A stretch of DNA of 28,131 nucleotides from NCBI GenBank assembly GCA_964485255.1, contig CAZAIS010000001.1, positions 1 through 28,131 of the forward strand, written 5' to 3'. Below the pieces are notes generated by a model. That model saw only the letters and a list, made by a program, of their open reading frames with translations, made no database searches and was not told where the DNA came from. Of this stretch, positions 55 through 18,447 are shown one piece after another (position 1 is the stretch's first letter; every line of letters begins with the position of its first letter). The translations under genes were made by a program, and so were the position numbers. Source of the stretch: an uncultured Acidimicrobiales bacterium (GTDB lineage Bacteria; Actinomycetota; Geothermincolia; Fen-727; Anoxymicrobiaceae).

Positions 55-1116
55 TCACTCCTCCGTTTCCCTCAGGCCGAGACCCACGCAGCAGGCGATA
101 GAGGGCTCGAGCTCCGCAAGCTCCTCCGGCGCGAACGAGAGCTTGCCGAGCTGTACGTTCTGGAGCGGGTGCCCGATCTCTATGGGTAGCCTCAGGCCCC
201 GGTTGAGCTCGAGCGGAAGGTTTATCATCTTCGACCCGCTCCCGGAGAGTACGACCTTGTTGAGGTCCCGCTCCTGGGTCTGCGAGATATAGTACTCGAG
301 GGAGCGCCTGATCTCTCCCACGAAAGCCTGTATCTCTTTCTGCAGGAGGCTGTTCGCTTCCGGGTCCGTGCTGCGGCCCCGCTTGATCTCCTCGGCCTCG
401 ATGGGGGTCAGCTTGAGCTGATCGCACAGGAGCTTTGTGAAGTAGTCGCCGCCCCGCATCAGCATTCTTACGAAGCGCGGCGTGCCTTCCTTTACCACGC
501 ATACATTACAGATGCCGGCGCCGATGTTCACCAGGCAGAGGCTCCCCGGCGACTCGGCCTCCTCCTCGAGAAACTGGTATTCCTTCTTGATCAGGGACCT
601 TACCATGGAAAACGCCTTGAGCTCGATGGACTCGGGCGTTAGCCCGGCCCCCAGGCAGGCGTCCATGAAAGCCGTTATCATCTCCCTGTGCGCCGCCGCG
701 AGGAGGATGGTCTGCATGCGCTCTTCCTCGCCGGTCATGTACTCGTCCACGACCTCGTAATCCACGATGGCGTCGTCAATCGGTATTGGAATGAACTCCT
801 GGACCTGGTACTTGACGGCGCTCTTGAGCTCTTCCTCGGGCATATACGGCAGGTCCATCGGCCGCACGATGACCTTCTGGTTGGCTATCCCGAGTATGAC
901 CTTACGCCTGCTGATGCGGTTCGTCTTCCAGAGATCCTTGAGGTAAGTGGAGACGATTTCGGCGTTGTCGATCTCTCCGTCGCGGACGGCGCCCTCGGGG
1001 AGCATGATTATCGCGAGGTTGGTGAGGATCGGCTCCTTGCGCGAGATATTAATCTCCGCCACCTTTATGGATCCGGTGCTGATGTCCAGACCTATCGACA
1101 CTCCGCCCTTAGCCAA
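55..1116 (-). CDS. pilM: Type IV pilus assembly ATPase-like protein PilM (actin/FtsA fold)
   Basis: IGLDISTGSIKV actin-like phosphate-1 motif, VVLSGSGSKM motif, NPLQNV and CVGLGLR C-terminus. TTG start with GAGGTG RBS. Followed by the INLLP gene. Confidence 0.93.
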   Translation of the reverse strand: MAKGGVSIGLDISTGSIKVAEINISRKEPILTNLAIIMLPEGAVRDGEIDNAEIVSTYLKDLWKTNRISRRKVILGIANQKVIVRPMDLPYMPEEELKSAVKYQVQEFIPIPIDDAIVDYEVVDEYMTGEEERMQTILLAAAHREMITAFMDACLGAGLTPESIELKAFSMVRSLIKKEYQFLEEEAESPGSLCLVNIGAGICNVCVVKEGTPRFVRMLMRGGDYFTKLLCDQLKLTPIEAEEIKRGRSTDPEANSLLQKEIQAFVGEIRRSLEYYISQTQERDLNKVVLSGSGSKMINLPLELNRGLRLPIEIGHPLQNVQLGKLSFAPEELAELEPSIACCVGLGLRETEE

Positions 1117-1190: not shown

Positions 1191-1361
1191 CTATTCAGAG
1201 CCCCTGTTCAGATAATTATCTACGTCGCTTTCCTTGATCCTGTAGTTTTTACCAACGCGAATGGCCGGTATCTGCTTCCCCTTTACAAGCCGGTAGACCG
1301 TCATGTTGGAAACCCGCAGGATCTTTGCTACCTCGTTGACTGTAAGGAGCTTGTTGCTCAC
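1191..1361 (-). CDS. 56-aa excisionase-like / BldC-like winged HTH DNA-binding protein (HTH_17 type)
   Basis: Below the ORF-track cutoff. GTG 1361 to TAG 1191 gives MSNKLLTVNEVAKILRVSNMTVYRLVKGKQIPAIRVGKNYRIKESDVDNYLNRGSE, matching the LTVxEVAxxLxVSxxTVYRL...IPAxRVGxxxRI pattern. Confidence 0.9.
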   Translation of the reverse strand: MSNKLLTVNEVAKILRVSNMTVYRLVKGKQIPAIRVGKNYRIKESDVDNYLNRGSE

Positions 1362-1628: not shown

Positions 1629-2573
1629 TTACCTTAAGAGTTTTAAATACAGGTCCGAGAGTTGCTGACCCCATATCAAGGCAATGACGGCACCTGCCGC
1701 GAGGAACGGCGCAAAAGGTATCCGGTCCCGGCGGCCGGACCTCTTCAGCAGGACAAGCGGGATTGACGTCAGCGCACCGAGCAGGAATCCGATTACCAAC
1801 TGGACAATGATCAGGTACCAGTGAAAATAGCCGAGCGCGAGTCCGCAGAAGGCTATGAGCTTGACGTCCCCCATGCCGATGCCCGTTGGGATCTCGATTA
1901 CTTCCTCGTCGTCCTCGTGACCGCCCTTCTCAGCCGCGGAGTCCTGGCGGGCTTCGTCTTCGAGGAGCCGGCTCTCACCCTCGCTACGGGGTGCTCTCCT
2001 CATGAAAAGAAACCCATACAGCAATCCAATCCCCAGCAGAAACAGGCCACCGGCGGTTCCGGCGGCCACCGCAATCCCTATGCGTCCGGGCTGGCCACGG
2101 TACAACCCGAGGGCGGTCACCAGCAGGAGCATCGCGACGAGCCCGGGGTACATAACCCTGTTGGGGACGATGCCGAACGTAAGGTCGACGGCTGAGGCAA
2201 CCAGTAGAATGCATACCAGGAGCAGCCCAATGAACAACTCGGGGGTAAAGACCTGTCCCGGCGGCAGCCCCAGGTCGGCCGGGACCGTCGCGCGGCTCCA
2301 CCAGTATACGAGCACAAAGAGCCCGGCGGTAACCGCCTCGACAAGGGGGTACATGAGAGAAATCCGCTCGCCGCAACGGCGGCATCGCGCCCGCAGTATG
2401 CAGTAACTCAGGATCGGGATGTTGTCATACCAGCGTATCACCACCCCGCAGTGCGGGCATACCGAACGTTCTCCGAGAGATAGGTCGCGCGGGAGCCTGT
2501 AGATTATGACGTTGAAAAAGCTGCCGAAAATCAGGCCGAAACCGGCGGCGGCGAAGTAGTATAACCACGTCAT
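1629..2573 (-). CDS. pilD: Prepilin peptidase / N-methyltransferase (A24 family)
   Basis: GSFFNVIIYRLP, CPHC and CRRC Zn motifs, WYDNIPILSY, AVD and GMGDVKL catalytic aspartates, IPFAPFL. Start moved from 2675 to ATG 2573 (MTWLYY). Confidence 0.95.
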   Translation of the reverse strand: MTWLYYFAAAGFGLIFGSFFNVIIYRLPRDLSLGERSVCPHCGVVIRWYDNIPILSYCILRARCRRCGERISLMYPLVEAVTAGLFVLVYWWSRATVPADLGLPPGQVFTPELFIGLLLVCILLVASAVDLTFGIVPNRVMYPGLVAMLLLVTALGLYRGQPGRIGIAVAAGTAGGLFLLGIGLLYGFLFMRRAPRSEGESRLLEDEARQDSAAEKGGHEDDEEVIEIPTGIGMGDVKLIAFCGLALGYFHWYLIIVQLVIGFLLGALTSIPLVLLKRSGRRDRIPFAPFLAAGAVIALIWGQQLSDLYLKLLR

Positions 2574-2751
2574 CTTCAGTAGGTACCCCCTGCATTCCGC
2601 CGGCATGCCCAACCGGAAGCGTCCCGCGGCGCGGTCCGGCTGGGACCATTGCTGGGATTCCTCCCGGTAGGACAACCGGTGACTCGAGCGACAACCGGCA
2701 AGAGCCCCGCGGCCCGTGGGACCCCGGCGGCCGCCCGGGCAATGCCGGCGG

Positions 2752-4290
2752 TCAACCGCCCCGATCGCGTCGCTTCACCGCCTCGTAGAGCTTCCCGCCG
2801 TCATACAGAAGCATTCCGCCCACGCGTTCGGGCTTGTCCAACTTCGAGATGTCTGACGCGAGCGCTGAATCCCGGCCGATCAATAGAACGTCCGGCCTCG
2901 TCCGGGCAACGTGTCCGAGGACGTCATCGGCGCCCACATCATCTGACAATAGTAGCACACGCTTCCCTTCACCTTCCCATGCGGCGTGTCCCTTGGGCAG
3001 CAGGGACATCTGGCCGGAGCGGTAGCAGTCCAGGTAGAACATCAATTCAGGGCTGTTATCCTTGTCCTGCAGCATGACGGTCGCGAGTGCCCCCTCGTGA
3101 GCGTTGATGTACCCGGCGACCGCCTTCGAGTTCAGCGCGCCTGTATAGAGCGCCTCGGAGCGCATGTAGGACTCGAACCCGAAGGGGACCTGCAGCGCCG
3201 CTGTCGCCGCGACGAGGACGGCGGCGGCGGCTACAGGGACGAGCCTTCCGGCCCTGGCTGACGCCAGCCCCGATATCAGTGCCGCGAACCCCCATCCGCC
3301 GATGAGGGCGAACGCGGGCAGCGAACCGTAGATCATCCAGGGTGGCTTACCGTGGGACAGCGAGAGGACCAGGTAGACGACCACGATCCATACCATGAGA
3401 AACAGCAGCATGGCCAACCCGGAGTAACCGGTCGGGCCCTCTTCCCTGACCCTCGTCCCGGCTGGACGCCACGCCAGAGCGACGGCCGCGGCGAGGACGG
3501 CCAGCAGGACGCCCCAGCCAACGTCCGCCGGAATCCTCGCCAGGTAGAAATAGAAAGGCTCGTGCCAGACCTGCGCCGAGACGTGCGTGCCCAGAAAAAA
3601 CTGCAGGAACTGCCCCTTGGTCCTGGACAACAACAGGAACCACCAGGCGCAAAGAGGAACCGCCACCAGGAAGCTTGCGCCAAGGCCTTTGATCCGGTCG
3701 GTCCTCCGGGTGATAAGCACGAAGATCAGCACCGATACCGGCAGGAAAACCGCTATCTCCTTGGTCAGAAACGCGAGCCCGAGGAACAACCCCGCCCACA
3801 GGTAGCGTTTCCGGAAGAAGAAGAAAAGGAAAAGCATTCCCAGCGCCAGGGTCATCGACTCCTGCTTTATCCAGGTGTCGTATACGCGGGCCGCCGGCAT
3901 CAACGCGAAAAGCATGGCTCCGGTGAGGCCGGCCCATTTGCCGAGCCAGTCCCGCCCGCACATGAATATCATCACGATGAGCAGGAGCGCGAAGACAATC
4001 GATACTATCTCGAGGAATATCGAAAGCCCCACCCGGCCGGAACCCGTGACTCTCGCAAACAACATGCCGAGCCCGGTGTAAGCGGGAGGGTGCCTGAAGA
4101 TATTCGGGTAGAACGTGCTCACGTCATCATGATGGCCGCTTACGGCGTCCTCTATCGAGTTGACGTTCCAGGCCTCGTCCCAGGAAAGAACGTGTCCGAC
4201 GTTCGGCAACCGGAGGCCGAGCGCCAGGACGAGAACCAGCGCGAGCAACAGAGGAACCGCTTTGTCTTTCCGCAATACACCGGTCTTCAA
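2752..4290 (-). CDS. ArnT/PMT-like (GT-C fold) multi-pass glycosyltransferase
   Basis: First-loop SWDEAWN acidic motif, HPPAY motif, GLAFLTKE, many hydrophobic helices, soluble C-terminal domain. Confidence 0.8.
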   Translation of the reverse strand: MKTGVLRKDKAVPLLLALVLVLALGLRLPNVGHVLSWDEAWNVNSIEDAVSGHHDDVSTFYPNIFRHPPAYTGLGMLFARVTGSGRVGLSIFLEIVSIVFALLLIVMIFMCGRDWLGKWAGLTGAMLFALMPAARVYDTWIKQESMTLALGMLFLFFFFRKRYLWAGLFLGLAFLTKEIAVFLPVSVLIFVLITRRTDRIKGLGASFLVAVPLCAWWFLLLSRTKGQFLQFFLGTHVSAQVWHEPFYFYLARIPADVGWGVLLAVLAAAVALAWRPAGTRVREEGPTGYSGLAMLLFLMVWIVVVYLVLSLSHGKPPWMIYGSLPAFALIGGWGFAALISGLASARAGRLVPVAAAAVLVAATAALQVPFGFESYMRSEALYTGALNSKAVAGYINAHEGALATVMLQDKDNSPELMFYLDCYRSGQMSLLPKGHAAWEGEGKRVLLLSDDVGADDVLGHVARTRPDVLLIGRDSALASDISKLDKPERVGGMLLYDGGKLYEAVKRRDRGG

Positions 4291-4475
4291 CTCTTCGTAA
4301 CCCCTGGATCAAGGCGAACAGTCACTCAATCATATTGAATCACTACGCAATAGGACATCCCACCCGCCGAAACCGCATTCGCGAGCGGGATCGAAAACCG
4401 GCCGGGGGGCCTGGAGCAGGCTCCGGGCACCCGTCAGCCCGGCCGGGCCGCCAGCGAAGCCCGCTTCCGCTGTCA

Positions 4476-4481
4476 TATAAT
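4476..4481 (+). promoter_or_regulatory. -10 box of a probable leaderless transcript
   Basis: Perfect TATAAT ending 7 nt before ATG 4488, with no SD in the 6-nt gap (tgccgc). Confidence 0.6.
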
Positions 4482-4487
4482 TGCCGC

Positions 4488-6773
4488 ATGTCGAGCAATA
4501 CTGTCCAATACGCAAACCCGCCACTCGAACGCGAGAGCAGGGACGGCAGGCCTGCCTGGTACAGCCAGGAACTCCCGGTTCTCGCGTTGATCTTCGCCTC
4601 GAGCCTCACTCTCCACGTGATGACCGCGGCAAGAACCGTGACGTTCTCCGACTCCGGCGATTTCCTGATGGCGATATCAACGGTGGGAAACTGCCACGGG
4701 CCTGGTTACCCCCTCTACCTGATGAGCGCGAAGATTTTCTCCTGGATATTCCCGGTCGGCTCCCTGGCGTTCAGGGTGAGCGTGTTCTCCGGGTTGTTCG
4801 CTTCGCTTGCCGCCTGCCTCACGTACTGGATCGTGCTTCGCATGACCAGGAGCCGGGTCGGCGGTGTCGCCGCCGCCCTCGCCCTGTCGTTCTCCTACAC
4901 CTTCTGGTACGAAACCGTCATCCCGGAAACCTACGGACTCAACACGTTCTTCCTGTCCCTGCTCCTCGTCCTCATGCTCCGGTGGGAGAGGCTGCTCAAG
5001 GAAGGCCGGCGCGGGAGCGCGCGCAACACGCTGTCCGCCTTCGCGTTCGTCTTCGGCCTGTCGATGACAAACCATTTCAGCATACTATTCTCGATCCCGG
5101 CGTTTCTCTTCTTCGCGCTGGACACCAACTCGAGAGAAGTCTTCAACGTCCGCAACCTGGTCAGGATGGCCGCGTTTTTCGCGATAGGGCTGCTTCCGTA
5201 CGTCTACGAGCCGGCCGCCGCGTTCCGGGGGCCGGCGTACAACTACGGGGACCCCTCAACGCTCGCACGATGGTTCGATCACGTGACGCTGAACTATCAA
5301 CGCGGCGGTCTTTTCACATACCCGCTGAGGTTCCTGCCGGCCAGGTTCTGGCGCTATTTCGGCACGCTCACCACCGAGTTCCCGTACTTCTTCTGGCTGG
5401 CGGCGGTGGGCCTGGTCGCCTCCTTCCTCAAGAAGAACAAGAAATACGCGCTGTTCGTCAGTCTCCTGTTCGTTTTCACCACCATCACGGTCATGTGTTA
5501 CGACCAGCTCGAATCCGTGCTCAGGGCGCACTTCTACGGGCCCAGCTACTTCGTGGTCACCCTGTGGATCGGTTTCGGCGCCGCCTGGATCGCCAACCTC
5601 GTGAAGCGCTGGTCCAGAGGCCGGGACAGAATTCTGTCAGCAGGTGCCCTGGGAATCACCGGCGCCGTTCTTGTCTTACTGTGCTGCTCTTCGATTCCCG
5701 AGCACTACAACAAGGTCGACAAGAGCAACTACCGCTACGCGCGCGACATGGCGCTGAAGATGCTGTCGAAAGCCGACCGGGAAGGCGTGATCCTGACAGA
5801 TTCGGACAACGTGATCTTTCCACTCAAGTACATGCAGTACGTCGAGGGAGTGAGCCCCGCGGCGGACGTCGTAAACCCCAAGTCGCTGGGCGTGCCGGGC
5901 TGGACCGCCACCGATCTCAACCGAGCCGTTCTGCCACCCGGTGAAGAGCTCAAGCCCGCAGAAGGCGATTACGCGAGGGTGACAAAGCAGAAGTACCATA
6001 GCGTCCCCGTGTTCTCGAGCGGCCTGACCTTCTCGTTCTTCGGATGGAGCCAGGAATGGGAAGGCCTGCTGCTGCGCATCTACCCACCGGGAGCGCAACG
6101 CAAAGCCGCCAGCCCCGTGGTCCTCGCGCAGGGGGGCGAACCGCTGGCCGACCTGGACAGCGACGCCCGCGAGGCAATAGTCCTGTCCGACCTGATGGCT
6201 GTATACAACAAGATACACTCCGGCGAAACGGAAGAGGCCGCGCGCCTCTGCGAAAAGGTCACGCAATACGCCGGCAGAGATCTGTACGTCCCGACGTTGT
6301 ACGGTTGCGAGACCATATCGAATACGTACGACGTATGGGGGCAGCTCCTCAGCCAGCAAGGCAAGTACAAGAAGGTGGTCAGGGAGTTGCCCAAGGCCCG
6401 CCTGTTCAACCCGGACTTCGTGTCCCTGTCGCTCGCCGAGGCCTACATGAGAACCGGAAACGACTCGACGGCGGAGGATGAACTCTCCAAGTTTCTCGTG
6501 ATACACCCGAACAGCGCGGCGGCTTACGAAAAGTTGGGCGAGCTGCAGCTCGTGAGGGGCGATTTCAAGGACGCGGCGTCCTCACTCCGCGAGGCCGTGC
6601 GTCTCGACCCCGGCGTGGCGAAATCCCACTATCAACTCGGCACTGCCTTGCTGCACTTGAACGACAAGAACGGAGCGGTCGAGCAGTTCAACGAAGCGAT
6701 CGCCAGAGGCTCCGGCACTGAATGGGAACAACTGGCCCGTAGCGCCCTCGCGCCTCTCCTCGAGAAGGAATAG
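4488..6773 (+). CDS. DUF2723 / TMEM260-like GT-C membrane glycosyltransferase with C-terminal TPR repeats
   Basis: DSGDF...GNCHGPGYPLY matches the DUF2723 motif. Also ETYGLN, TNHFS, YGDPST, multiple TM helices, and TPR-like helices (AAAYEKLGELQL, AKSHYQLGTALL). Start moved from 4335 to ATG 4488. Confidence 0.82.
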   Translation: MSSNTVQYANPPLERESRDGRPAWYSQELPVLALIFASSLTLHVMTAARTVTFSDSGDFLMAISTVGNCHGPGYPLYLMSAKIFSWIFPVGSLAFRVSVFSGLFASLAACLTYWIVLRMTRSRVGGVAAALALSFSYTFWYETVIPETYGLNTFFLSLLLVLMLRWERLLKEGRRGSARNTLSAFAFVFGLSMTNHFSILFSIPAFLFFALDTNSREVFNVRNLVRMAAFFAIGLLPYVYEPAAAFRGPAYNYGDPSTLARWFDHVTLNYQRGGLFTYPLRFLPARFWRYFGTLTTEFPYFFWLAAVGLVASFLKKNKKYALFVSLLFVFTTITVMCYDQLESVLRAHFYGPSYFVVTLWIGFGAAWIANLVKRWSRGRDRILSAGALGITGAVLVLLCCSSIPEHYNKVDKSNYRYARDMALKMLSKADREGVILTDSDNVIFPLKYMQYVEGVSPAADVVNPKSLGVPGWTATDLNRAVLPPGEELKPAEGDYARVTKQKYHSVPVFSSGLTFSFFGWSQEWEGLLLRIYPPGAQRKAASPVVLAQGGEPLADLDSDAREAIVLSDLMAVYNKIHSGETEEAARLCEKVTQYAGRDLYVPTLYGCETISNTYDVWGQLLSQQGKYKKVVRELPKARLFNPDFVSLSLAEAYMRTGNDSTAEDELSKFLVIHPNSAAAYEKLGELQLVRGDFKDAASSLREAVRLDPGVAKSHYQLGTALLHLNDKNGAVEQFNEAIARGSGTEWEQLARSALAPLLEKE

Positions 6774-6791: not shown

Positions 6792-9029
6792 TCAACGGAC
6801 CAGCTCGATATCGAGGTCGCCGATGAGCACACCCGCCTGAACCTCTGTCGCCCCGGGGATCTCGGGGACCGGCGAGGGCTCGGATTTCGACCGGATAGTC
6901 ATCAGGTTGCTGCCGGGGTTGAGCTTGACCGAGCTGATCTTGAACTCCGTTCTCCATACCGGCAATATATTTCTACCCGTTGCCGCGCCACCAGCCACGA
7001 ACTCGATGGTTCCCTCTTTCTCTGTCGCGGAGGCCTCGATCGTGACGTCGGCGACAACGCTCGTCTGAAGCTCCGATCTTATGTCCACGACCATCTCCTC
7101 CATCCCGGGGTGCCATGCCTTGCCGTCGGCCGAGACGACCGCCTGCGAGCTGCCGGTCATGAAAAGGGGGTAGACTCTCGCCGGCTCGGCAACGACCTCG
7201 TAAATGACACAGTCCTCGAACTCGCTGACTTTCCTGAACCCATCGGGCACCCTGGAGTCCTCGAAGGAAACCGGGTCAACGTAATTGACGTGATTGCCTT
7301 CCAGGTAAAGGCTCGGTATGGCCAGGACGTACTTCACCCCCAACCTCTTCAGGATGCCAGGCGTTGACTCCTCGTAAAGGCTCAAGGCCGTCTGCCTGAT
7401 ATTGTCAGCCTCTGATTCCGGCTCGCCGTTGTTGACGAGTGGCTTCCGGTGGTGACGTTGATCCAGGAGATAGCGGTAGTTGCCGAAGTCGTCGGCGTAG
7501 AAGAACGGGTATACTGCGGCGATTGAACCTTCCTTCGCGTTCCTCAGCCAACGGTAATAGTCCTTAACCGACCCCGTGTCGAGCGAATAGAACGGCGGCA
7601 CTATCGAGTACTCCACCACGATCACGAGGCAGGTCACCGCCACGACGAACAGCCGTGCGCGCTTCCCGCCCGATTTGCGTAGCAGCGCCGCCGCCCCGTA
7701 GGACGCGACGACCGCGACGCAGAACATCACCCCTATGCCGAACCTCGCGTAAGCGCGCACCTCGGGCACCACGAAGTGCAGCAGGTAGCTGGGCATGTAC
7801 AACTTGAGCCCCAGGACGCCAAACGTCGGCGGCATCGAAAACAGGAAGCAGACAGCCGCGGTGAACCCCAGAGAGCACGCCACCCTGAAATCGCCGGACC
7901 ACCCGGCACGTTCCCGCGCCGGTCCGTCTCCACCGTCGTCGACGCACCCCGACCCTCCCTCCGGGCATCGGATCCGGCGGTTCCGCGCGAGTGTGTACGT
8001 ACCGAATGCCGCGAGGCCGAGGGGGACGTAGCCCAGGAAAAGGCTGCTCTCCGACAGGAACCCACCGTGCAGGTGCGACAGAATATATCCCCTTGAGATC
8101 CACCCGAAAGCAGCGGCGTCGGCGTGAGGGAGGATATAGTCCCACGGCCGCGCCGAGTAGAGATACAGTGCCTGCAACCCGCCCGCCGAACCCCTTCGCG
8201 CGAAATAGAAGACGGCTAACCCGATAATACCCGCGGCAATCAACCCCACCGCCACGAGATTGCCGGCGGCGCGGAGCTTGCTCCAGGGTTTCCCGGTAAG
8301 CCACATCACCAGCAGGAACGCGACGGCCATTACCCCACAGATCAGGCCGTAGTGGAAGTTGAACAACGCAGTAAGCGTGAAAGCCCCGACGCAGCACAGC
8401 GCCGGCACGAGGCCCTTCTCGCGCCACCACCTTATCAGGAAATAGAAGAAGAGCGGTATCCATCCTACGGTGAGCAACCCGATATGCTCCTTGCCCTGCA
8501 GGAGCATGTACGGGCATATGCCGAACGCGATGCCGGCGACGGCTGCCGCCCCCCTGCTCTTCGTAAGATATTTGGCCAGGACGAACATGCATACGGCGGC
8601 AAACAAATACGACCCGATAAGGAAGACGTTGTAGGCGACGGTTTCGCCGGTAAGCCTGGTCAGCAGCTTCAGTGTGAGAACAGACAGCGGGTCCCTCGAT
8701 AGAACATTCATGTTCCTGCCAAACGGCACGGCGACCATGGAAACCGGGTTGACCGCGAGGCCCCTGGCCGAAGCGTACCTGGTCCACCAGAGCCACCAAA
8801 TCATCCCCATGGAATCCCCACGCTGCGCGTAGGTACGCGACGTGAGCGTTATCGCGGGATACGTCATGAACGCCACGATAGCGGCGTACAAGGAAAAGAC
8901 CGCCGCACCCCGGCTCAATATAACCCCGCGCAACCGTCGAGGTCTATCTGGCTTCAGCTCATTCACTAAAAGGATCTTCCCACCCCGCCGTTCAACGCTG
9001 ACGCGGGATGAGGCCCCGCTGAAATCCAA
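6792..9029 (-). CDS. Large multi-pass membrane protein, predicted GT-C / YfhO-like glycosyltransferase (paralog A)
   Basis: RGDSMGMIWWLWW loop, many TM helices, soluble C-terminal domains, collinear with 14231-16552. Start uncertain (TTG 9029 or GTG 8966). Confidence 0.65.
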   Translation of the reverse strand: MDFSGASSRVSVERRGGKILLVNELKPDRPRRLRGVILSRGAAVFSLYAAIVAFMTYPAITLTSRTYAQRGDSMGMIWWLWWTRYASARGLAVNPVSMVAVPFGRNMNVLSRDPLSVLTLKLLTRLTGETVAYNVFLIGSYLFAAVCMFVLAKYLTKSRGAAAVAGIAFGICPYMLLQGKEHIGLLTVGWIPLFFYFLIRWWREKGLVPALCCVGAFTLTALFNFHYGLICGVMAVAFLLVMWLTGKPWSKLRAAGNLVAVGLIAAGIIGLAVFYFARRGSAGGLQALYLYSARPWDYILPHADAAAFGWISRGYILSHLHGGFLSESSLFLGYVPLGLAAFGTYTLARNRRIRCPEGGSGCVDDGGDGPARERAGWSGDFRVACSLGFTAAVCFLFSMPPTFGVLGLKLYMPSYLLHFVVPEVRAYARFGIGVMFCVAVVASYGAAALLRKSGGKRARLFVVAVTCLVIVVEYSIVPPFYSLDTGSVKDYYRWLRNAKEGSIAAVYPFFYADDFGNYRYLLDQRHHRKPLVNNGEPESEADNIRQTALSLYEESTPGILKRLGVKYVLAIPSLYLEGNHVNYVDPVSFEDSRVPDGFRKVSEFEDCVIYEVVAEPARVYPLFMTGSSQAVVSADGKAWHPGMEEMVVDIRSELQTSVVADVTIEASATEKEGTIEFVAGGAATGRNILPVWRTEFKISSVKLNPGSNLMTIRSKSEPSPVPEIPGATEVQAGVLIGDLDIELVR

Positions 9030-9046: not shown

Positions 9047-9751
9047 TCATCTGTCGGCTTTGCGGCCGAGCACGCAGAGGCTCACAAAACCGCTTACGGC
9101 CGCTCGGCGGACGTAAGACCTGCGGTAGCTCTCCGAGCCGGGCATCGGCCTGTGCGCAAGATATTTCCACAAATAGAGAGCCATGTAGTCCGCCACCACC
9201 AACCAGCCCCCGCATACCCGTGCTTCCGTGACAACGAAGCCCGCTTCCTCCATCATCGCGCTCACGTCGCGCAAACGGTAGTGCCTGTGTCCCGCGATCA
9301 GCCACGCCGGGTCCATGATGCAGGAGCGGACGTTCTTGCTCGGCGTTCCCAAGGCCAGGCAGCCTCCAGGTCTCGTGACCCTCGAAATCTCCCTCAGGGC
9401 GCGCGCCTCCGAGTCGACGGGCAGGTGCTCGAGCACGTCGAAAAACGTCACCACGTCGAATATCGCCTCCTCGAAAGGAAGGTCGAGGACGGAGCCTTCG
9501 ACGAAGGATGCCCGGGGTACTTTCCCGCGAGCGACCTCCAGGGCCCGCGGTTCTATGTCCAACCCCGTTACGCTGCGCGCGCGCGAAGCTGCCAGGGAAG
9601 CGAAGTCGCCGGTCCAGCACCCGACATCCAGCAAGTCGGCAGAGTTCACCACGTCGCCCACGAAGGCGGCCTTGGCCTCCTGCCGGTAGGCCTCTTTGCC
9701 GCCATCGGCGATCTCGTCGAATCTCATCTTCTTCGGTTCACGCGTTTTCAT
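9047..9751 (-). CDS. Class I SAM-dependent methyltransferase
   Basis: LLDVGCWTG motif I, GLDI, FDVVTFFDVLEHL, RVTRPGG. ATG overlaps the upstream TGA (TGATG). Confidence 0.9.
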   Translation of the reverse strand: MKTREPKKMRFDEIADGGKEAYRQEAKAAFVGDVVNSADLLDVGCWTGDFASLAASRARSVTGLDIEPRALEVARGKVPRASFVEGSVLDLPFEEAIFDVVTFFDVLEHLPVDSEARALREISRVTRPGGCLALGTPSKNVRSCIMDPAWLIAGHRHYRLRDVSAMMEEAGFVVTEARVCGGWLVVADYMALYLWKYLAHRPMPGSESYRRSYVRRAAVSGFVSLCVLGRKADR

Positions 9752-10581
9752 CAGCCGACCCCCGGGTGCCCTTTTTGAAAAACGAGGGCCATGTGGTGCG
9801 CGTACTTCTTCAAGGGACTCCTCAACAGCAGCCGATCGAGCGACGTCAACAGCGGAGACAGGAGATTGTAGAAACGCATTCCCTTAGGTGGGAACGAAGG
9901 GACCATGTCGGTGACTCCTTCACGCACGAGCGCGAGGCCGTGTCTCGCTGCGTCCTTTTCGACCTGCCGCTCCGACAAGACCAGCTCGTGGACGGGAAGG
10001 CCCAGCCTCGCCGCCAGTCTCTCCAGGTAAGCCCCCTGTCTGGGAGTCCTGAAGACAAAGAACCAGCCGCCGTCCCGCGTTACGCGTGATATCTCCGCGA
10101 GGAGCTCGCCCAGCCAATCCGGGTTCACGTGCTCGATGACCGCGTGCGCCACCACCGCATCGAACGCGCCGTCGCCGAACGGCAGGCTCCTGCCGTCGAA
10201 GCCGGTCAGGCTTATCCCGAACACCTTTCGTATCTCTTCCCAGCTCTCCGTCAGCAAGGTCGGGCGCTCCCTCTCCGCGCCGCAAGACCCCCACTCCGCC
10301 CCGTACGCCCGCTCCCTCCCGCAACCGCCGCCCGCGTCGATGTCCACGCCGCGCACATCGTGGCCATACCCCTTGAGCAATACCGCCATCAGGCCCATGC
10401 CGCATCCGACGTCGAGCACCCGGGCCGCGCCGGGCAGCCTGGCATCGGCAATCCGCGCGCACTCCCACATCCCGTTCACGTATACGTCGGACCGCCAGTC
10501 CATCCAGGCGTCCCCCAGGTCCAGTCCCTCCATGGTCCTGCGATACTCCCGTATGAGTTCCGAATAAGCGGTCTTGTCCAT
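9751..10581 (-). CDS. Class I SAM-dependent methyltransferase
   Basis: VLDVGCGMG, GVDI, FDAVVAHAVIEHV, RVTRDGG. Start moved from 10794 to ATG 10581 (MDKTAY, preceded by GGAG). Confidence 0.88.
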   Translation of the reverse strand: MDKTAYSELIREYRRTMEGLDLGDAWMDWRSDVYVNGMWECARIADARLPGAARVLDVGCGMGLMAVLLKGYGHDVRGVDIDAGGGCGRERAYGAEWGSCGAERERPTLLTESWEEIRKVFGISLTGFDGRSLPFGDGAFDAVVAHAVIEHVNPDWLGELLAEISRVTRDGGWFFVFRTPRQGAYLERLAARLGLPVHELVLSERQVEKDAARHGLALVREGVTDMVPSFPPKGMRFYNLLSPLLTSLDRLLLRSPLKKYAHHMALVFQKGHPGVG

Positions 10582-10787
10582 CTCCAGCCTCGCTCTCGCG
10601 CGGCTCCGTCGAAAGGCGAACCGCTCCCTACCGGCACCGTAGCACCGGACGTCGCCTGACCTGTTGAAAACCGCGGTCATTAAACTGTTAGCCGCGAGTC
10701 GCGCTCGAACCTTGCGCGGCCCTGCCCCCGCGGCGCAACCGCGACCCGCGGCCGCGGGTGAACGGCGTGGACGGCTTCCTGTATCAT

Positions 10788-12383
10788 ATGGCAAGAGCCA
10801 CCTGCGCTACCGGCTTGGAGTGGAACATTCGAATACAACTGATAAACCCCACGGTCACGATCTCGAAGGCCGATTACTACCAGGGCATAAGCTTCATGCC
10901 TCCGCTGGGCCTGGCGTACCTAGCGTCCGTCCTGTGCGAGGCCGGTCACGAGGTTTCTATCATCGACCGGTTAGGGGCACACCCGATGCCCGTGGAGCGA
11001 ACGGGCGACCTCTTGAGGTGTGGGATAGACGAGAGCACGGTGCTTGAGCGAATGGAGAGCTTCGCCCCCGAGCTCATAGGCATTACCTGCCCGTACACGG
11101 CAAACGCGCGCGACGCTGTCGATACGGCAAGACTTGTGAAAAGAGCGTCGCCCGGGATTCCCGTCCTTATGGGAGGGGCGCACGCTTCCGTGTGCCCGGA
11201 GGAGCTGCTCGCTGAAGAAAGCGTGGATTATGTCATCGCTGGAGAAGGCGAGGACGTAACGAAGTCCCTGGTCGCCGCCCTCGAATCGGGGGCCGAAACG
11301 TCCGCCATCGACGGACTGATGCGCATGAATGCCGACGGCGTTATATCGGGCAGCCCCGCCCACGAGCGGATCAAGGATCTGGATTCGATCCCGTTTCCCC
11401 GCAGGGACCTGCTACCCATGGAGCAGTACTTCAAGGCCCAGCAATCAGGACTCGAGAGAATAAACAACATCAGGTGGCCCAAGACTACGATGATCACATC
11501 GCGCGGATGCCCCGAGAACTGCGTGTTCTGCGCGATAAGATGCACGTGGGGCAGAAAATGGAAGGGCCGCTCTCCCGGGAACGTCGTAAACGAGATAGAG
11601 GGTCTCGTCAGGGATTTCGGCGTGAGGGAGATAGACTTCCTCGATGACAGCCTCTCTGTTTCCAGGAGCCGGCTCGAGGCGATATGCAACCTCATTATCG
11701 AGCGCGAGATAGACATCAAGTGGACTACGCCGAACGGGATCGCGATATGGTCGCTGGACGAGGATCTGCTGAAGCTGATGAAAAGGTCCGGCTGCTACCG
11801 CCTGACTTTCGGCCTGGAGTCAGGGGACAGCGACACCATTGACTTCATCCGGAAGCGCTACACTCGCGATTACGCTCAAAAGCTCATCGGATACGCGAAC
11901 CGGATCGGTCTGTGGACCATCGGCACATTCATACTCGGTTTTCCCTACGAGACGAGAGCGCAGATGGAACACACGATCCGCTTCGCGATCGATTCCGGCC
12001 TGGACCTCGCGGTGTTCTACTGCGCGGCCGCATTCCCCGGAACGGACCTTTACAAAGTGTGCGCGAGCGAGGGAATAGAGGTACCGAGGTCGGCTTCCCT
12101 GATGCTCAGCGCAATCGACTCGACCACCATGACCGCCGAGCAAATAGCCCGCGTACGCGAGGACGCCAACGGCAGGTTCGCCCGGAACCTGAGGCGACGG
12201 CCCTGGAAAGTCCTGGAGAAGATCAAGAACGTCGAGGACTGCCGGTACGCCGCCCGCGTCAGCCGCTACGCCCTCCGCCTCTCGCGGAGGTCCGCCGCCA
12301 CGCGCAGCACGACCGCGTTCCTGTATTCCGGCGATGGGGGACGGCGGGGACGCCGTTCTCGACAGCAGCGTCGGAGGGGTTGA
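10788..12383 (+). CDS. B12-binding domain radical SAM protein (class B methyltransferase-like)
   Basis: PPLGLAYLAS, MGGAHAS and GEGE in the cobalamin domain; TSRGCPENCVFC (CxxxCxxC); FGLESG; FILGFPYET. Start uncertain (ATG 10788 or slightly downstream). Confidence 0.9.
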   Translation: MARATCATGLEWNIRIQLINPTVTISKADYYQGISFMPPLGLAYLASVLCEAGHEVSIIDRLGAHPMPVERTGDLLRCGIDESTVLERMESFAPELIGITCPYTANARDAVDTARLVKRASPGIPVLMGGAHASVCPEELLAEESVDYVIAGEGEDVTKSLVAALESGAETSAIDGLMRMNADGVISGSPAHERIKDLDSIPFPRRDLLPMEQYFKAQQSGLERINNIRWPKTTMITSRGCPENCVFCAIRCTWGRKWKGRSPGNVVNEIEGLVRDFGVREIDFLDDSLSVSRSRLEAICNLIIEREIDIKWTTPNGIAIWSLDEDLLKLMKRSGCYRLTFGLESGDSDTIDFIRKRYTRDYAQKLIGYANRIGLWTIGTFILGFPYETRAQMEHTIRFAIDSGLDLAVFYCAAAFPGTDLYKVCASEGIEVPRSASLMLSAIDSTTMTAEQIARVREDANGRFARNLRRRPWKVLEKIKNVEDCRYAARVSRYALRLSRRSAATRSTTAFLYSGDGGRRGRRSRQQRRRG

Positions 12384-12434: not shown

Positions 12435-13148
12435 TCACCTGCGGGCCTTTACCGCTATGAACGCCGAGTGTCGGGGGTCCAGTTCACTCAACAGCTCCGC
12501 TATCCGGCCGCCGAGGGGAAAATAACCGTAACCCTTCAGAACTTCGACCTTGAAACCGTGGGCCTCGAGCAGGTCCACCAGGCCCCTGGGCGCGAAGATC
12601 CGCCTGTGCTGTAGCGGCAGGGCATTGCCGGCCTCCCCCCGGTGCAGTGCAAGGGGGTTGCCGAGCCCCGCGACCTTGCCGCTGATATTGCCGAGCGAGA
12701 ACGGCTGCCAGCCCATCGCTATCGCCGCCACGTTGTACCAGGCCGATATGTTCTCGGTGGATATCGCGAAAACTCCCCCGGGCTTCAGCAACCTGTACGC
12801 CTCGGCCACGAGATTGTCCGTATCATACAGGTGCTCTATGACCTGGTTCGCGATCGCGCAGTCGGCCCTTCCTTCCGGCAGGTCGATCGGCCGGTTCAGA
12901 TCGGAGACGGTCACCTTCACCCCGATGGCGCCGGCGGCGTTCGCGGCCTCCTGTTCGATCTCTATGCCGATTGCCTCAGCCGCGTGAATCGCGCCCGCCA
13001 CCCGCATGGTGTAGACGCCGTCGGCGCAGCCGAAATCCAGCAGCGTCCCGGCGCCGCTCCCCGCCAGGAACTCGATGAGCCCCAGGCGGTTGCGGTCCTG
13101 CGCTTCGATCCAGGTCCTGTGCATGTACTCCCGCAACCCTTCTCTCAC
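12435..13148 (-). CDS. Class I SAM-dependent methyltransferase
   Basis: LLDFGCADG, GIEI, ANQVIEHL, RLLKPGG. GTG start with GGAGG RBS. Confidence 0.9.
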   Translation of the reverse strand: MREGLREYMHRTWIEAQDRNRLGLIEFLAGSGAGTLLDFGCADGVYTMRVAGAIHAAEAIGIEIEQEAANAAGAIGVKVTVSDLNRPIDLPEGRADCAIANQVIEHLYDTDNLVAEAYRLLKPGGVFAISTENISAWYNVAAIAMGWQPFSLGNISGKVAGLGNPLALHRGEAGNALPLQHRRIFAPRGLVDLLEAHGFKVEVLKGYGYFPLGGRIAELLSELDPRHSAFIAVKARR

Positions 13149-13178: not shown

Positions 13179-14228
13179 TCACTGACTCCAGTTATCCCGC
13201 TCCTGCTCGCGCGGCCTGATTCGGGCTTCCACCACTCCCCAGGCGTACACAACCAGCGTAACAAGGCACGCCGGAACGTGCAGAATCCATGCTATGTCCG
13301 GCCTCCTTGTGTATCCTCTGACCGCCTGCGCGACGAGAGGGACCACCAGGAGGCAGTACGCGATGAACTTCAGGATGCCGCGGGTGCGCCCGCGGTTCGG
13401 GGCGCTCTCCCTCATTCCGCGCGCGCTGTAGTAGCTGAAATCCCGCACCCTCCTGAGTTGCTTTCGCCCGAAGACGCGCAAGCCCGTCCCGTAGAGGTGC
13501 ACTATCCCGGTCTTCACCTTCGCGAAGCGGTCGTAACCCAACGCCACCAGCCCGCTGACTACATCGACGTCGAAGAGATACTCCCCTACGTCCAGAAGCT
13601 CGAGGAGTCCCCGCCGGACCATGAAACCGTTCGCGCCCATCGTTGGAATACGGCCTGTCTGGAGCTTGACCTCCAGGTAATCGCCCCGGTCGCGCTCGTC
13701 CACCTTCAGCCCCGTCCACTTCCCCGAAAGCGCGCTCACGCGGTCGTAGCTGCCCATGAAGTAGACCAGAGGGTCGTTCATTCCCAGCAACGCGCAATAC
13801 CTCGTCAGCATGGGATCGTCCCGCCGGTACGTATACTCCAGCGGCTCCGACGCGGCGATCCCGGGGTCCGCGAAAGGCGCCGTCATGCGTCTCATCCACG
13901 ATCCGTCGGGCAGGATGTTGTCGCTGTCGATCAGGGCTACGACGTCCCGGGTGGCGGCTTTCAGCCCTGCCGCTTTTCCCGCCTCGCCGGTCTTCTTTTC
14001 GTTTTCGACGACCAGGCAGCCGTACTCTTCGGCGATCCGCAACGTCCCGTCCGTCGAGCCCCCATCCGCCACTATTATCTCGAGCGGCCCGTCGAATTCC
14101 TGCAGCCTGATGCTCTCCAGGCACGAGGATAGAACGCTCTGCGCGTTGAGAGTCGGGATTATTACGCTCACCCCGACGGGTTCAACGCCCCGGGACGAGT
14201 CTCGCTTTTTCTCCACCTCACCCGTCAT
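13179..14228 (-). CDS. GT2 family glycosyltransferase with C-terminal membrane helices
   Basis: SVIIPTLN, IIVADGGSTDGT, IDSD (DxD), GANGF, two hydrophobic C-terminal segments. Confidence 0.9.
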   Translation of the reverse strand: MTGEVEKKRDSSRGVEPVGVSVIIPTLNAQSVLSSCLESIRLQEFDGPLEIIVADGGSTDGTLRIAEEYGCLVVENEKKTGEAGKAAGLKAATRDVVALIDSDNILPDGSWMRRMTAPFADPGIAASEPLEYTYRRDDPMLTRYCALLGMNDPLVYFMGSYDRVSALSGKWTGLKVDERDRGDYLEVKLQTGRIPTMGANGFMVRRGLLELLDVGEYLFDVDVVSGLVALGYDRFAKVKTGIVHLYGTGLRVFGRKQLRRVRDFSYYSARGMRESAPNRGRTRGILKFIAYCLLVVPLVAQAVRGYTRRPDIAWILHVPACLVTLVVYAWGVVEARIRPREQERDNWSQ

Positions 14229-14230: not shown

Positions 14231-16552
14231 CTACCGCTCCACAATCTCGACGTTGTCTATCTGCAGCAACGCGTTTCTCATCGCGAATATCGCGAGCTCG
14301 TTGTTGCTCAACCGTGTAGCGGGGCCGCTCTTGGTGATATTCAGCTCCAGCCCGCCGGACGGCACCCTGAGGTTGCCGATCTCCACCATGGCCTCCTGGC
14401 CTTGATCCATGAGGCCGGTTGCCAGCTCTTCCCCGCTTTTCGCGCTTATCGTGACCTTGCCCCTGGAGTATGGATTCCTCAACGGTACCTTCAGTGTAAT
14501 CACTCGGTCTTCACCCGTGTAATTCTCAAGCCTGATCGTTCCCAGGCCGTCGAGCACGCGCATGGTTTCTCCTTCCCTGGCCATTATCGGCACGGATATG
14601 TTCCCAAGGTACAGGGGCAGGATGTCGGCCGGTCTTCCCTTGACCTCGTAGATGCGCGCCTGTCCGAACGGACCGTCCTCGTTGAACCTGGCGACTTCCC
14701 GGAAGCCCTCCGGAAGCCGTGACGGGTCCAGCGGCCAGCCCGCGTTCTCCTCGATCTCTCCGACGAAAACCACCGCGTGGGTCATGCCTAGCCTCTTGAG
14801 GTACGAGGGCGTCGCCGGGTCGTAAGGGTTGTAGACTGTTCGACGGGCAGCCTCACCATCGGAGTTCGCGGTCGCTCCGTTGAGCATCGGCTTCTTGAAG
14901 ACCCGCTGGTAGAACAAGAGCTGGCTGGCTAAAAACGGACCGTTCTCGTGGATCGGGTAGAACACGAGCACGGGGTCCCCCTTCATCTTATCTACCGCGG
15001 AGAAGACGCCAGGCGTATCGCTGAAGTCGAAATTCTTGAAAGGCGGAACGGGCACCATCTCTACCAGCAGAAGCGCGACGAAAAGGGTGACAACGATTAT
15101 CGAGCGGGGGCGGAAGCGGTGCGCGAGGAGGACCAGGCCGGCAGCCGCGATCACGATCAAGCAGAGCCCTACGACGACCGACCACCTGTTGTACCAGCGA
15201 AACCAGGGCGCGATCAGCGTCATGATCCTGGACGGGAGCGGGATTTCGGCCGACCCGATGGAAAAGCCCGGCTTGAGCGAAAATACGAAAGCCGAAAGGC
15301 CCGCCGCCGCGAAACCCCACATGGCCGGCGCGGCGCCGCCGCCTCCATGAGGGGCCCGGTGTTCATCCCGCGCCTCGCGAAGCTTTCTTTTCCTGCTCCG
15401 CCATTTAGAGAGAGTCAGTACCAGGCAGATGGTGGCGAGCAGGAAAACCGTCCAACCGATGTATACCGAATCGACGTAAAGAGCCTGGGTCACCTTGTGA
15501 AGCCTCCTCTGCAGCGGAGCCAGCAGAGAGTTCTTGAAGTTCGGCCTCAGGTATTGTGCCGGAGACGCGGACGCGCCGTACAAGTATTCGTCTATGCGAA
15601 GTTCGGCCGGCGTGGGGCTGGTAGGCCACCTGCCGGGAGGATTGTAGTCACTCGCGTACAGGACGAAGAACGGCAGTACCGCGATCACGAAGACGAGCAG
15701 GGCGCAAAGAGACAGCAGGGCGGTCCTCCTGTTCACCGAAAGGTGATCCCGGATCGAACGGCGCAGGCCGCCCCCCGAAGCGTCCCTCACCACGAGGTAG
15801 ACCCATCGACCGATCAGGAAGGCCGGTGTGAACACTCCCATGAAAAGCCCGAAATGCAGTGAGGTGTTGGCCACCAGTATCGCGCTCAGGGAGACGCCTA
15901 ACGCCGTCTTCCATCCGGGCTTCTCGATGAAAAGGATCAGGCAGAGGATGTAGAGAGGCATCCACTGCGTTGCGGCCAGCCCCGAGCCTATAAACATAGA
16001 ATAGTTGACGTGGAACGCGGACAGCATGAACGCTATTCCCGCGAAAAACGCTACCCGCCGGTCGTGCAGCAGATGTCGCACCAGGTAATACATCGTAACG
16101 CCCGAGAGCGCGTATCCCAGGAGCACGTCTATGTTCCATGCAACCACCTCGTTGGTGAACAGGAGGAGGAACCTCCACTCCAGGTACCCGAGAGGTTGCA
16201 CCGGAAACCCGAGCGAGCTTCCGAAGGGAGCGCCGATCAGTGGACAGAACGTCACGCTTCCGCCGTATGCGCCGGCATTCTTGTACCACCAGTTCAACCA
16301 TATCGTCCCGAGGTTGTCTCCCGGGACACCGTATATGGAACTGCTGAAGCGCGTTATGAGAGGCCAGGTCAGATAGAGTGTGAACAAAACGTAAAAAAGG
16401 ATTATCCAGAACTCGGGCCTTACGCGGGATATGCTCGCCGCCATACGACCGGCCACACCGGAGAAAGGCCTCCGGGCGCCAGCGACGGAGGCAGCCTCAG
16501 CGGCGCCGTCCGCGGCCGTGTCTTTTGCTCCAGTGTCATTCATCGCCAGCAA
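14231..16552 (-). CDS. Large multi-pass membrane protein, predicted GT-C / YfhO-like glycosyltransferase (paralog B)
   Basis: PGDNLGTIWLNWW loop, many TM helices, collinear with 6792-9029. Start TTG 16552 or ATG 16543. Confidence 0.65.
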   Translation of the reverse strand: MLAMNDTGAKDTAADGAAEAASVAGARRPFSGVAGRMAASISRVRPEFWIILFYVLFTLYLTWPLITRFSSSIYGVPGDNLGTIWLNWWYKNAGAYGGSVTFCPLIGAPFGSSLGFPVQPLGYLEWRFLLLFTNEVVAWNIDVLLGYALSGVTMYYLVRHLLHDRRVAFFAGIAFMLSAFHVNYSMFIGSGLAATQWMPLYILCLILFIEKPGWKTALGVSLSAILVANTSLHFGLFMGVFTPAFLIGRWVYLVVRDASGGGLRRSIRDHLSVNRRTALLSLCALLVFVIAVLPFFVLYASDYNPPGRWPTSPTPAELRIDEYLYGASASPAQYLRPNFKNSLLAPLQRRLHKVTQALYVDSVYIGWTVFLLATICLVLTLSKWRSRKRKLREARDEHRAPHGGGGAAPAMWGFAAAGLSAFVFSLKPGFSIGSAEIPLPSRIMTLIAPWFRWYNRWSVVVGLCLIVIAAAGLVLLAHRFRPRSIIVVTLFVALLLVEMVPVPPFKNFDFSDTPGVFSAVDKMKGDPVLVFYPIHENGPFLASQLLFYQRVFKKPMLNGATANSDGEAARRTVYNPYDPATPSYLKRLGMTHAVVFVGEIEENAGWPLDPSRLPEGFREVARFNEDGPFGQARIYEVKGRPADILPLYLGNISVPIMAREGETMRVLDGLGTIRLENYTGEDRVITLKVPLRNPYSRGKVTISAKSGEELATGLMDQGQEAMVEIGNLRVPSGGLELNITKSGPATRLSNNELAIFAMRNALLQIDNVEIVER

Positions 16553-17077: not shown

Positions 17078-17117
17078 GTGATTCACCCCCTCTCGGCAAC
17101 TCTCATCTCTATTTATA

Positions 17118-18384: not shown

Positions 18385-18447
18385 TGTCAAACCTCCCCGA
18401 CGCGACCCGCCGGTCGCCTCGAACGGCCCTTTTATCCACTGTTCCCA

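Follow-up and report, generated by a model that had tools for sequence, protein, structure and literature searches.

A TMEM260-family glycosyltransferase in the type IV pilus locus of an uncultured actinobacterium, a candidate initiator of pilin O-glycosylation

The DNA analysed here (the window: all 28,131 nucleotides of the stretch taken from contig CAZAIS010000001.1 of assembly GCA_964485255.1, an uncultured Anoxymicrobiaceae genome) is a type IV pilus cluster whose genes lie on the minus strand save two, a B12-radical SAM gene and the gene of interest. The latter (4488..6773, plus strand) encodes a TMEM260-like (DUF2723) membrane protein and lies in the slot between the prepilin peptidase gene pilD and the pilin gene. 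As judged by sequence comparison, the locus would present a bacterial clade of a known protein O-glycosyltransferase family that is placed by its genomic context on a new class of acceptor, within a variable glycan island. One metagenome contains k-mers of the window, and metagenomes from landfill, sludge and sediment contain a part of them.

The TMEM260-like protein

The open reading frame (ORF) opens with ATG at 4488 and encodes 761 aa. The public gene call (P0001) is of 728 aa, starting 33 codons later (4587) at a TTG inside the first transmembrane (TM) helix, which would cut away part of that helix; because the homologs are 743-774 aa long and can be aligned from the ATG at 4488, we take that ATG as the better start. 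The TMEM260-like signature named in the original prediction was correct: Pfam PF11028 matches residues 55-211 (E 3.3e-30, 105.6 bits against a cut-off of 24.2), and among PDB sequences human TMEM260 (9rql/9rqm/9rqn) matches over ~485 residues (HMMER alignment, E 2.2e-37, query 35-519 on chain 32-524), as the single PDB sequence matched by the non-TPR part of the protein. By sequence, both matches are far beyond chance, and that the product is a GT-C glycosyltransferase (GT) of the TMEM260 family is, in our judgement, close to certain. Further Pfam matches are to the TPR families TPR_2, TPR_14, TPR_19, TPR_16 and TPR_1 on residues 613-746, and to PMT_2 at 21.4 bits, under its cut-off of 26.1.

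An AlphaFold2 model built on a 30-homolog alignment (pLDDT 84.8, pTM 0.84) has 11 TM helices, a first outer loop that carries two short helices, a mixed alpha/beta domain at 417-555 (five strands, at 434-436, 460-462, 508-510, 521-524 and 529-532) and an all-helical C-terminal domain of ~11 helices at 558-759; together with the TPR matches, this bears out the multi-TM core, soluble domain and TPR tail originally described. The distribution of Lys and Arg among the loops assigns the N-terminus to the inner side and both the catalytic loops and the C-terminal domains to the outer side. When the model was compared with the PDB by Foldseek, the best membrane matches were STT3/PglB oligosaccharyltransferases (TM-score ~0.4), with TPR proteins also found; as a comparison of a predicted model, this backs the GT-C fold alone. 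The entries 9rql/9rqm/9rqn did not appear in the Foldseek list, and we assumed, unchecked, that they are absent from that library copy. Consensus-TPR and OGT TPR structures matched the C-terminal TPR part, both in the PDB sequence search and in Foldseek. The parts of the protein are as follows.

4554..5687, plus strand: GT-C core and variable module, residues 23-400, 11 TM helices (AlphaFold2 helices, loop charges, alignment to TMEM260 TMH1-11)
4650..4697, plus strand: first outer loop motif, D55-S-G-D58 ... H70-G-P-G-Y-P-L (pairwise alignment, translation)
5736..6152, plus strand: extracytoplasmic Rossmann-like "palm" domain, residues 417-555 (alignment, translation, model strands)
6159..6764, plus strand: C-terminal helical/TPR "fingers", residues 558-759 (Pfam TPR, model helices, TPR structures)

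In human TMEM260 a 7-helix GT-C module and a 4-helix variable module are joined to a palm domain, lumenal and Rossmann-like, and to TPR fingers; the mannose of dolichyl-phosphate-mannose (Dol-P-Man) is bound by the first-loop residues D52 and H67, and D52A and H67 mutants are inactive; R264 and Y267 (in the donor-loading loop) and R355 (TMH10) are donor contacts too; D441, in the palm, serves as general base towards the acceptor Thr; an extended acceptor peptide is bound by the TPR fingers; and the enzyme is an initiating, non-elongating transferase (bioRxiv 10.64898/2026.03.17.711096). We followed the counterparts of these residues in alignment A1 (the close clade, 30 homologs at 40-66% identity) and in the cross-family alignments A2 and A4, to which remote members at 18-30% identity were added.

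On the donor side, D55 and H70 pair with human D52 and H67, the donor-sugar site, in the HMMER alignment. D55 (codon at 4650-4652) opens the DSGD motif, D55-S-G-D58 (4650-4661), which lies within FSDSGD; it is conserved to at least 90% in A1 and is invariant in A2 and A4, while H70 is invariant in A1 and A4. On the acceptor side, D440 (5805-5807), in LTDSDNVIFPLKYMQYVEG, pairs with human D441, in GDLPGNSLRYMHYCEG, by the same alignment. It belongs to the Rossmann-like domain motif L-T-D-S-D440-N-V-I-F-P-L-K-Y-M-Q-Y-V-E-G, and the residues invariant across the 30 homologs are H70, D440, N441, F444, P445, Y448 and Q450; D440 is retained at 90% or more in A4, with Asp or Glu in most of the remote members of A2. 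Residues 23-400 are predicted to bind a polyprenyl-phosphate-sugar, and the TPR fingers, by analogy with the human enzyme, would be the acceptor-binding domain. The remaining donor contacts are matched less clearly: loop 247-279 has Y270 and a nearly invariant R272, in reversed order relative to human R264/Y267, and human R355 aligns with Thr or Leu (non-basic), with an invariant R346 nearby. The donor sugar therefore cannot be inferred, and need not be mannose.

The pilD-pilin slot and its surroundings

Close homologs (40-66% identity) all come from uncultured Actinomycetota labelled Geothermincolia or Anoxymicrobiaceae. With the window's proteins as reference we annotated 17 genome loci plus one additional contig, and found the TMEM260-like gene in the pilD-pilin slot at 12 related loci as well as in the window itself (the pilin border being seen on those contigs that extend so far). 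Eight distinct genomes (L001=L012, L006, L008, L009, L011, L013, L017 and L018) have it as the sole gene of the slot. The order at these minimal loci is pilM, HTH gene, pilD, TMEM260-like gene (plus strand), pilin (1-3 copies), pilC, pilT, pilB, aroE, so that the TMEM260-like gene adjoins the pilin gene; a gap of ~65 bp separates the TMEM260-like gene from the divergent pilD (L001). Additional glycan genes, differing from genome to genome, fill the slot in L003, L005, L007, L015/L030, P0003's contig and the window: extra YfhO-like proteins, PMT_2, GT2 and GT4 proteins and methyltransferases. One genome's slot has aminotransferase, oxidoreductase and acetyltransferase genes, which are typical of di-N-acetylated sugars. 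The slot is hypervariable, ranging from one gene, the TMEM260-like one, to more than 14 kb of differing glycan genes, and it is because the other genes differ from genome to genome that we call the TMEM260-like gene the constant one. From this follows our main argument, that a constant gene in a hypervariable slot acts first, and that the products of the other genes extend or decorate what it has begun.

A neighbour-joining tree sets a clade of minimal-locus proteins apart from the clade that holds the window protein. Three copies (L010, L016 and the short contig L014) were without recognisable pilus context. Orthologs of the window's GT2 (57-67% identity) adjoin the TMEM260-like gene convergently in L010, L014 and L015/L030, an arrangement that fits a donor-synthase/transferase pair; orthologs of the window's PMT_2 protein adjoin TMEM260-like genes in L010 and L015.

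An independent pilin association comes from a remote clade of the family (~690 aa, 20-28% identity), named Burkholderiales in public records. Its gene order is major pilin (PF00114), GT2, in some a YfhO-like gene, GT2-GtrA fusion, DUF2723, an unknown membrane protein, then methyltransferases and further genes for sugar modification; the pilin-to-DUF2723 order holds in six of six contigs, DUF2723 lying two to four genes beyond the pilin, on its downstream side. That pilin is of the classical IVa type, and a position next to the pilin is where the pilin-modifying genes tfpO and tfpW lie. At one of these loci (L107 2069..2432) the pilin gene as assembled is frameshifted, its N- and C-terminal halves being read in different frames; this would be either a pseudogene or an error of sequencing. 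The unknown proteins of 626 and 784 aa in the Burkholderiales islands gave no hhalign signal against the window's 745- and 773-aa proteins. In five loci (L020, L022, L023, L106 and L107) the pilin is also preceded, immediately upstream, by one or two TPR-GT41 (OGT-like) genes. Since Ogt, a TPR-GT41 enzyme of cyanobacteria, is reported to be needed for the glycosylation of pilin (PMC9306852), two pilin-modifying systems may be combined at these loci.

Returning to the window, its genes other than the TMEM260-like one are listed here up to the right flank beyond pilB.

55..1116, minus strand: pilM (Pfam PilM_2)
1191..1361, minus strand: small HTH_17-like gene (ORF; HTH_17 called in L001 and in P0003's locus)
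1629..2675, minus strand: prepilin peptidase PilD, likewise an enzyme that modifies pilin, border of the slot (Pfam A24_N_bact, Peptidase_A24)
2752..4290, minus strand: PMT_2/GT87-type GT-C protein, 512 aa (Pfam PMT_2, E 1.9e-10)
4291..4487, no strand: divergent intergenic region, 197 bp, between PMT_2-pilD (minus) and the TMEM260-like gene (plus) (gene coordinates)
6792..9029, minus strand: 745-aa multi-TM protein, probable GT-C, YfhO/DUF6311-like (A3 alignment, hhalign)
9047..9751 and 9751..10794, minus strand: two SAM-dependent methyltransferases (Pfam Methyltransf_11/25/23)
10758..12383, plus strand: B12-binding radical SAM enzyme, methyltransferase-like (Pfam B12-binding and Radical_SAM)
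12435..13148, minus strand: third SAM-dependent methyltransferase (Pfam, NCBIfam)
13179..14228, minus strand: GT2 with two C-terminal hydrophobic helices (Pfam Glycos_transf_2, translation)
14231..16552, minus strand: 773-aa multi-TM paralog of 6792..9029, probable GT-C (faint YfhO match, A3 alignment, hhalign)
16697..17122, minus strand: prepilin gene (Pfam N_methyl, NCBIfam pilin families)
17167..18390, minus strand: pilC, pilus platform (Pfam T2SSF)
18515..19591, minus strand: pilT, pilus ATPase (Pfam T2SSE)
19619..21310, minus strand: pilB, pilus ATPase (Pfam T2SSE, MshEN)
21376..22239, minus strand: aroE, of the shikimate pathway (right flank beyond pilB)

The ~14-kb island between pilD and the pilin thus comprises the PMT_2 protein, the TMEM260-like protein, the 745/773-aa pair, three methyltransferases, the B12-radical SAM enzyme and the GT2, i.e., up to four GT-C-type transferases and one candidate polyprenyl-phosphate-sugar synthase, the GT2, which we propose as the maker of the donor. 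Within it the TMEM260-like gene lies 9.9 kb from the pilin gene, in the same slot. The 745-aa protein had no Pfam or NCBIfam match and its 773-aa paralog a faint YfhO match alone; an invariant first-loop Asp in alignment A3, a 95% hhalign probability between this family and the TMEM260-like GT-C core, and relatives in P0003's locus with weak YfhO, DUF6311 and PMT_2 matches suggest that the pair probably constitutes an undescribed YfhO/DUF6311-like GT-C subfamily. On the minus strand the 773-aa gene directly follows the pilin gene and directly precedes the GT2 gene. PDB sequence searches with the GT2, PMT_2 and 773-aa proteins gave generic matches or none. The divergent region 4291..4487 presumably holds the promoters of both units; a sigma-70 consensus scan of it gave no match, which is uninformative for an Actinomycetota genome.

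Some further observations concern the island's modifying enzymes and the flanks. For the B12-radical SAM enzyme the best NCBIfam match is the Sden_1168-family P-methyltransferase (E 3e-65, below cut-off), a hint that the sugar may be an unusual one with C- or P-methylation. At their 5' ends this ORF and the divergent methyltransferase ORF 9751..10794 overlap, so that one of the pair has probably been given too early a start codon. At the left end, pilM and the HTH_17-like gene adjoin pilD in all related loci. At the right (22297..27611), an MglA-like GTPase, a DUF4388/PatA_N protein and two Roadblock/LC7 (MglB-like) proteins adjoin the pilus genes, a polarity/motility switch module in an Actinomycetota genome that is kept in related loci. 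A single ORF of ~880-1,110 aa encodes the DUF4388 protein in relatives, where its long middle part is acidic, proline-rich and of low complexity; the window (22857..26474) has it split into ORFs of 421 and 644 aa with a gap of 417 bp, perhaps by a frameshift or an assembly error, perhaps as a true split.

The presumed acceptor is the product of the prepilin gene, and a scan of the window for prepilin motifs found none besides 16697..17122. Its true start is probably M16 or M19 of the ORF, and the mature pilin has 116 aa, starting FTLIELMIV and ending SCPGSVSGHSI, with 29% Ser+Thr in its C-terminal half. Pilins of the class Geothermincolia are highly conserved (105-116 aa when mature, 17-32% Ser+Thr in the C-terminal half), having a variable Gly/Ser/Thr/Asn-rich loop ahead of a conserved PP-x-[IV]-[STV]-C-P motif and, in 11 of 14 pilins, an H-[T/S]-I terminus after it. 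From composition, the Ser and Thr residues of the variable loop and C-terminal half are candidate glycosylation sites alone. We rejected the idea that the island had made the window pilin unusually rich in Ser and Thr, given its 29% against 17-32% in the others.

Proposed role and its rivals

The best-supported reading takes the pilin as acceptor and gives the TMEM260-like enzyme the role of initiating O-glycosyltransferase, and we would give it an even chance. Its case comes from three points taken together: the constant gene in a variable slot, the independent pilin-adjacent clade and the conserved acceptor-side chemistry. By this proposal an inverting GT-C enzyme of the TMEM260 family would transfer one sugar to pilin Ser/Thr. 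The GT2 (13179..14228), or an unlinked enzyme in the genomes with minimal loci, would make a polyprenyl-phosphate monosaccharide on the cytoplasmic face; this lipid-linked donor would be flipped and then bound in the transmembrane groove. At the outer face, before assembly, the TPR domain would grip an extended segment of the membrane-anchored (pre)pilin, and the Rossmann-like domain would present a Ser or Thr to D440, which would activate the hydroxyl for transfer of a single sugar with inversion. In genomes with islands, the GT-C-like proteins (in the window those of 2752..4290, 6792..9029 and 14231..16552) may then extend the glycan outside the cell, and cytoplasmic methyltransferases and the B12-radical SAM enzyme may modify the sugar precursors.

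Several observations weigh against this role. The gene is on the strand opposite to every pil gene and so is not co-transcribed with the pilin. Synteny within a single lineage is weak evidence, because aroE in the block, and aroC/aroK/aroB beyond pilM-O (in the flanks of L001 and of P0003's contig), are equally conserved, and these aro genes are without known pilus role. L010 and L016 are second paralogs outside the pilus locus, and their genomes carry another copy within it. In these organisms no glycan has been observed on pilin, the human acceptor sequon is absent from the pilins, the window pilin is no richer in Ser/Thr than pilins of island-free loci, and human R264/Y267 and R355 have no clear equivalents in the enzyme. 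Three other GT-C-like proteins of the island are possible alternative enzymes in this window. In the wider family, pilus genes were near the family ORF in 2 of 65 diverse metagenome loci, about what chance would give by a rough estimate (~3-4% expected), and other members adjoin a giant adhesin-like protein, a GT2/LPG-synthase pair or polysaccharide ABC-transporter/export genes.

The two pilus-linked loci of that sample are L037 (10025..19520), where DUF2723 is directly upstream of pilB-pilT-pilC-pilS-pilR, and L035 (1841..5680), with the order pilD-x-DUF2723; L021 (8001..12621) has DUF2723-LolA-secretin. The family is very large, with matches to 12,970 clusters (50% identity) at E<=1e-3 and, under the stricter threshold of E<=1e-30, to 633, but only three cluster representatives are more than 40% identical to the query. 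A tblastn search of plasmids returned two Bacteroidota DUF2723 genes alone and was uninformative. At L024 (724..9748) a distant DUF2723 gene stands beside a surface protein of >3,400 aa with FG-GAP, fn3 and ASH Ig-like repeats, a pairing that recalls the IPT-domain substrates of human TMEM260, which are Ig-like too.

The original prediction had this enzyme attach the first sugar to Ser/Thr of pilus proteins. It is better supported than the letters alone could tell, by the invariant D440, the constant gene of the pilD-pilin slot and the pilin-linked Burkholderiales clade; the tie to pilus proteins is one of association, and against it count the opposite strand, the synteny of the shikimate genes, a family not pilus-linked at large and the three other GT-C-like island proteins.

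An unlikely though serious rival is a protein O-glycosyltransferase that is not specific for pilin, acting on other secreted or membrane proteins (parts of the pilus machinery, adhesins, lipoproteins) and merely resident in the pilus block. Actinobacterial Pmt modifies various secreted or membrane proteins. The conserved Ser/Thr-acceptor catalytic apparatus suits such an enzyme, as do the paralogs outside pilus loci in the same genomes (L010, L016), the distant member next to the >3,400-aa surface protein with Ig-like repeats, and the synteny of unrelated aro genes. Against it, the TMEM260-like gene is the sole pilD-pilin gene in eight genomes and a separate clade in Burkholderiales is pilin-adjacent; the paralogs, too, suggest a division of labour in which the pilus-locus copy serves the pilus. 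We also doubt, but take seriously, that the acceptor is no protein at all and rather a wall glycopolymer, lipoglycan or teichoic-acid-like polymer, the slot being a hot spot for a surface-polysaccharide locus. The island resembles the CsbB/YfhO type of GT2 plus GT-C decoration, which acts on teichoic acids; its methyltransferases are typical of glycolipid or polysaccharide loci; some family members are in polysaccharide export loci; and most GT-C families have lipids or polymers as acceptors. Yet the sole characterised family member is a protein O-mannosyltransferase, whose D441 base and TPR domain are both kept here, and the minimal loci are without any other glycan gene.

Minimal loci also speak against the improbable alternative that the TMEM260-like enzyme elongates a pilin glycan initiated by another GT-C of the island (the PMT_2 protein 2752..4290, or the 773-aa protein beside the pilin). 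The window does have three other GT-C-like proteins, one of them, the 773-aa protein, encoded directly between pilin and GT2; these are absent from the eight minimal loci, where the TMEM260-like gene alone remains, and the human enzyme initiates and does not elongate. Very improbable, finally, is a structural pilus-assembly factor, a TPR scaffold on a vestigial glycosyltransferase fold. TPR proteins PilW and PilF serve pilus assembly, and the TPR region has a weak NCBIfam type_IV_pilW match, but the invariance of H70, D440 and further residues of the D440 motif over the 30 homologs, with D55 at 90% or more, argues for retained activity.

If pilin initiation is indeed the role of the TMEM260-like enzyme, it would be a third route of pilin O-glycosylation beside PglL/TfpO and TfpW, and it would offer a tractable model, in bacteria, of the human enzyme whose gene is mutated in SHDRA syndrome; the hypervariable island would be explained as diversification of surface-filament glycans, e.g., under phage pressure, as for Pseudomonas pilins. 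In the searchable literature DUF2723 appeared only through the 2023 discovery of human TMEM260, which noted "distant homologs in bacteria"; we found no bacterial DUF2723 substrate in the literature searched, in agreement with the earlier statement that none is established. For this very large bacterial family, the position of the present clade points to one defined acceptor that is small and easily expressed, a pilin of ~110 aa, which would make a bacterial function directly testable. A wider proposal, which we hold as doubtful, is that bacterial TMEM260-family enzymes are conserved initiators of a fully extracytoplasmic, stepwise pilin O-glycosylation, in which a changeable set of GT-C enzymes extends the glycan from polyprenyl-phosphate monosaccharides, some of them methylated, and that the human IPT-domain O-mannosyltransferase is of bacterial surface-filament ancestry.

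Comparison with known systems

The module order of human TMEM260 (7-TM GT-C, 4-TM variable, Rossmann-like, TPR) recurs in the window protein, with the equivalents of D52, H67 and D441 kept. The two differ in the expected donor (a bacterial polyprenyl-phosphate-sugar here, Dol-P-Man in human), in the TPR domain (~11 helices, about twice as long, versus 5 in human), in the IPT-domain sequon, which is absent from the presumed substrate, and in setting, as further genes for building glycans accompany the bacterial gene in its pilus locus whereas the O-Man of IPT domains in human is unextended.

Other transferases share parts of this design. TMTC1-4, which O-mannosylate cadherins and whose TPR domain is thought to select the protein substrate, likewise have a GT-C membrane domain followed by a lumenal TPR domain, but they are without a Rossmann-like domain bearing a catalytic Asp, and the window protein has no TMTC or DUF1736 Pfam match. 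The PMT/POMT enzymes (GT39, including actinobacterial Pmt) resemble it in Ser/Thr O-glycosylation beyond the membrane from polyprenyl- or dolichyl-phosphate-mannose, in a first-loop Asp and in the weak PMT_2 match, yet their acceptor-binding module differs, and Pfam found no PMT or MIR domain here. PglL/TfpO (PilO) likewise act on Ser residues of type IV pilins beyond the cytoplasm, and tfpO is a neighbour of pilA; unlike the stepwise extracytoplasmic route proposed here, in which sugars would be added singly, they transfer en bloc an oligosaccharide pre-assembled on undecaprenyl diphosphate and have a Wzy_C domain, for which the TMEM260-like protein gave no Pfam match. By these Pfam results (no PMT/MIR, TMTC/DUF1736 or Wzy_C) we ruled out a GT39 PMT, TMTC or PglL/TfpO identity. 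Systems of the CsbB/GtrB plus YfhO type share the plan of a GT2 that loads a polyprenyl-phosphate-sugar and an outer-face GT-C that transfers it, and the island has YfhO-like proteins; the acceptors known for them are teichoic acids or O-antigens and thus not protein. In the window we recognised no separate GtrA-like flippase.

Closest in function would be TfpW of P. aeruginosa, a pilin D-arabinofuranosyltransferase encoded next to pilA and required for pilin O-glycosylation, which polymerises Araf and is predicted to have an 11-TM GT-C core, a large outer C-terminal TPR domain and an acidic first-outer-loop motif. We compared it (AAM52060.1) by description, and no match named TfpW appeared among the search results for family members; its YX6PFX7P motif (outer loop 4) was absent, by regular expression, from the window protein and 15 family members, and in the literature searched TfpW was not linked with DUF2723, TMEM260 or PF11028, nor the family with pilins. 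The present protein also differs in coming from an actinobacterial metagenome-assembled genome and in being encoded, in this window, 9.9 kb from the pilin and on the opposite strand. Because of the comparison by description and the absent motif we treat TfpW as an analogue and not as family. With its 11 TM helices, outer C-terminal TPR domain and first-loop acidic motif, and with the pilin-adjacent gene position that the minimal loci reproduce, TfpW would by analogy be the best functional counterpart of the TMEM260-like enzyme.

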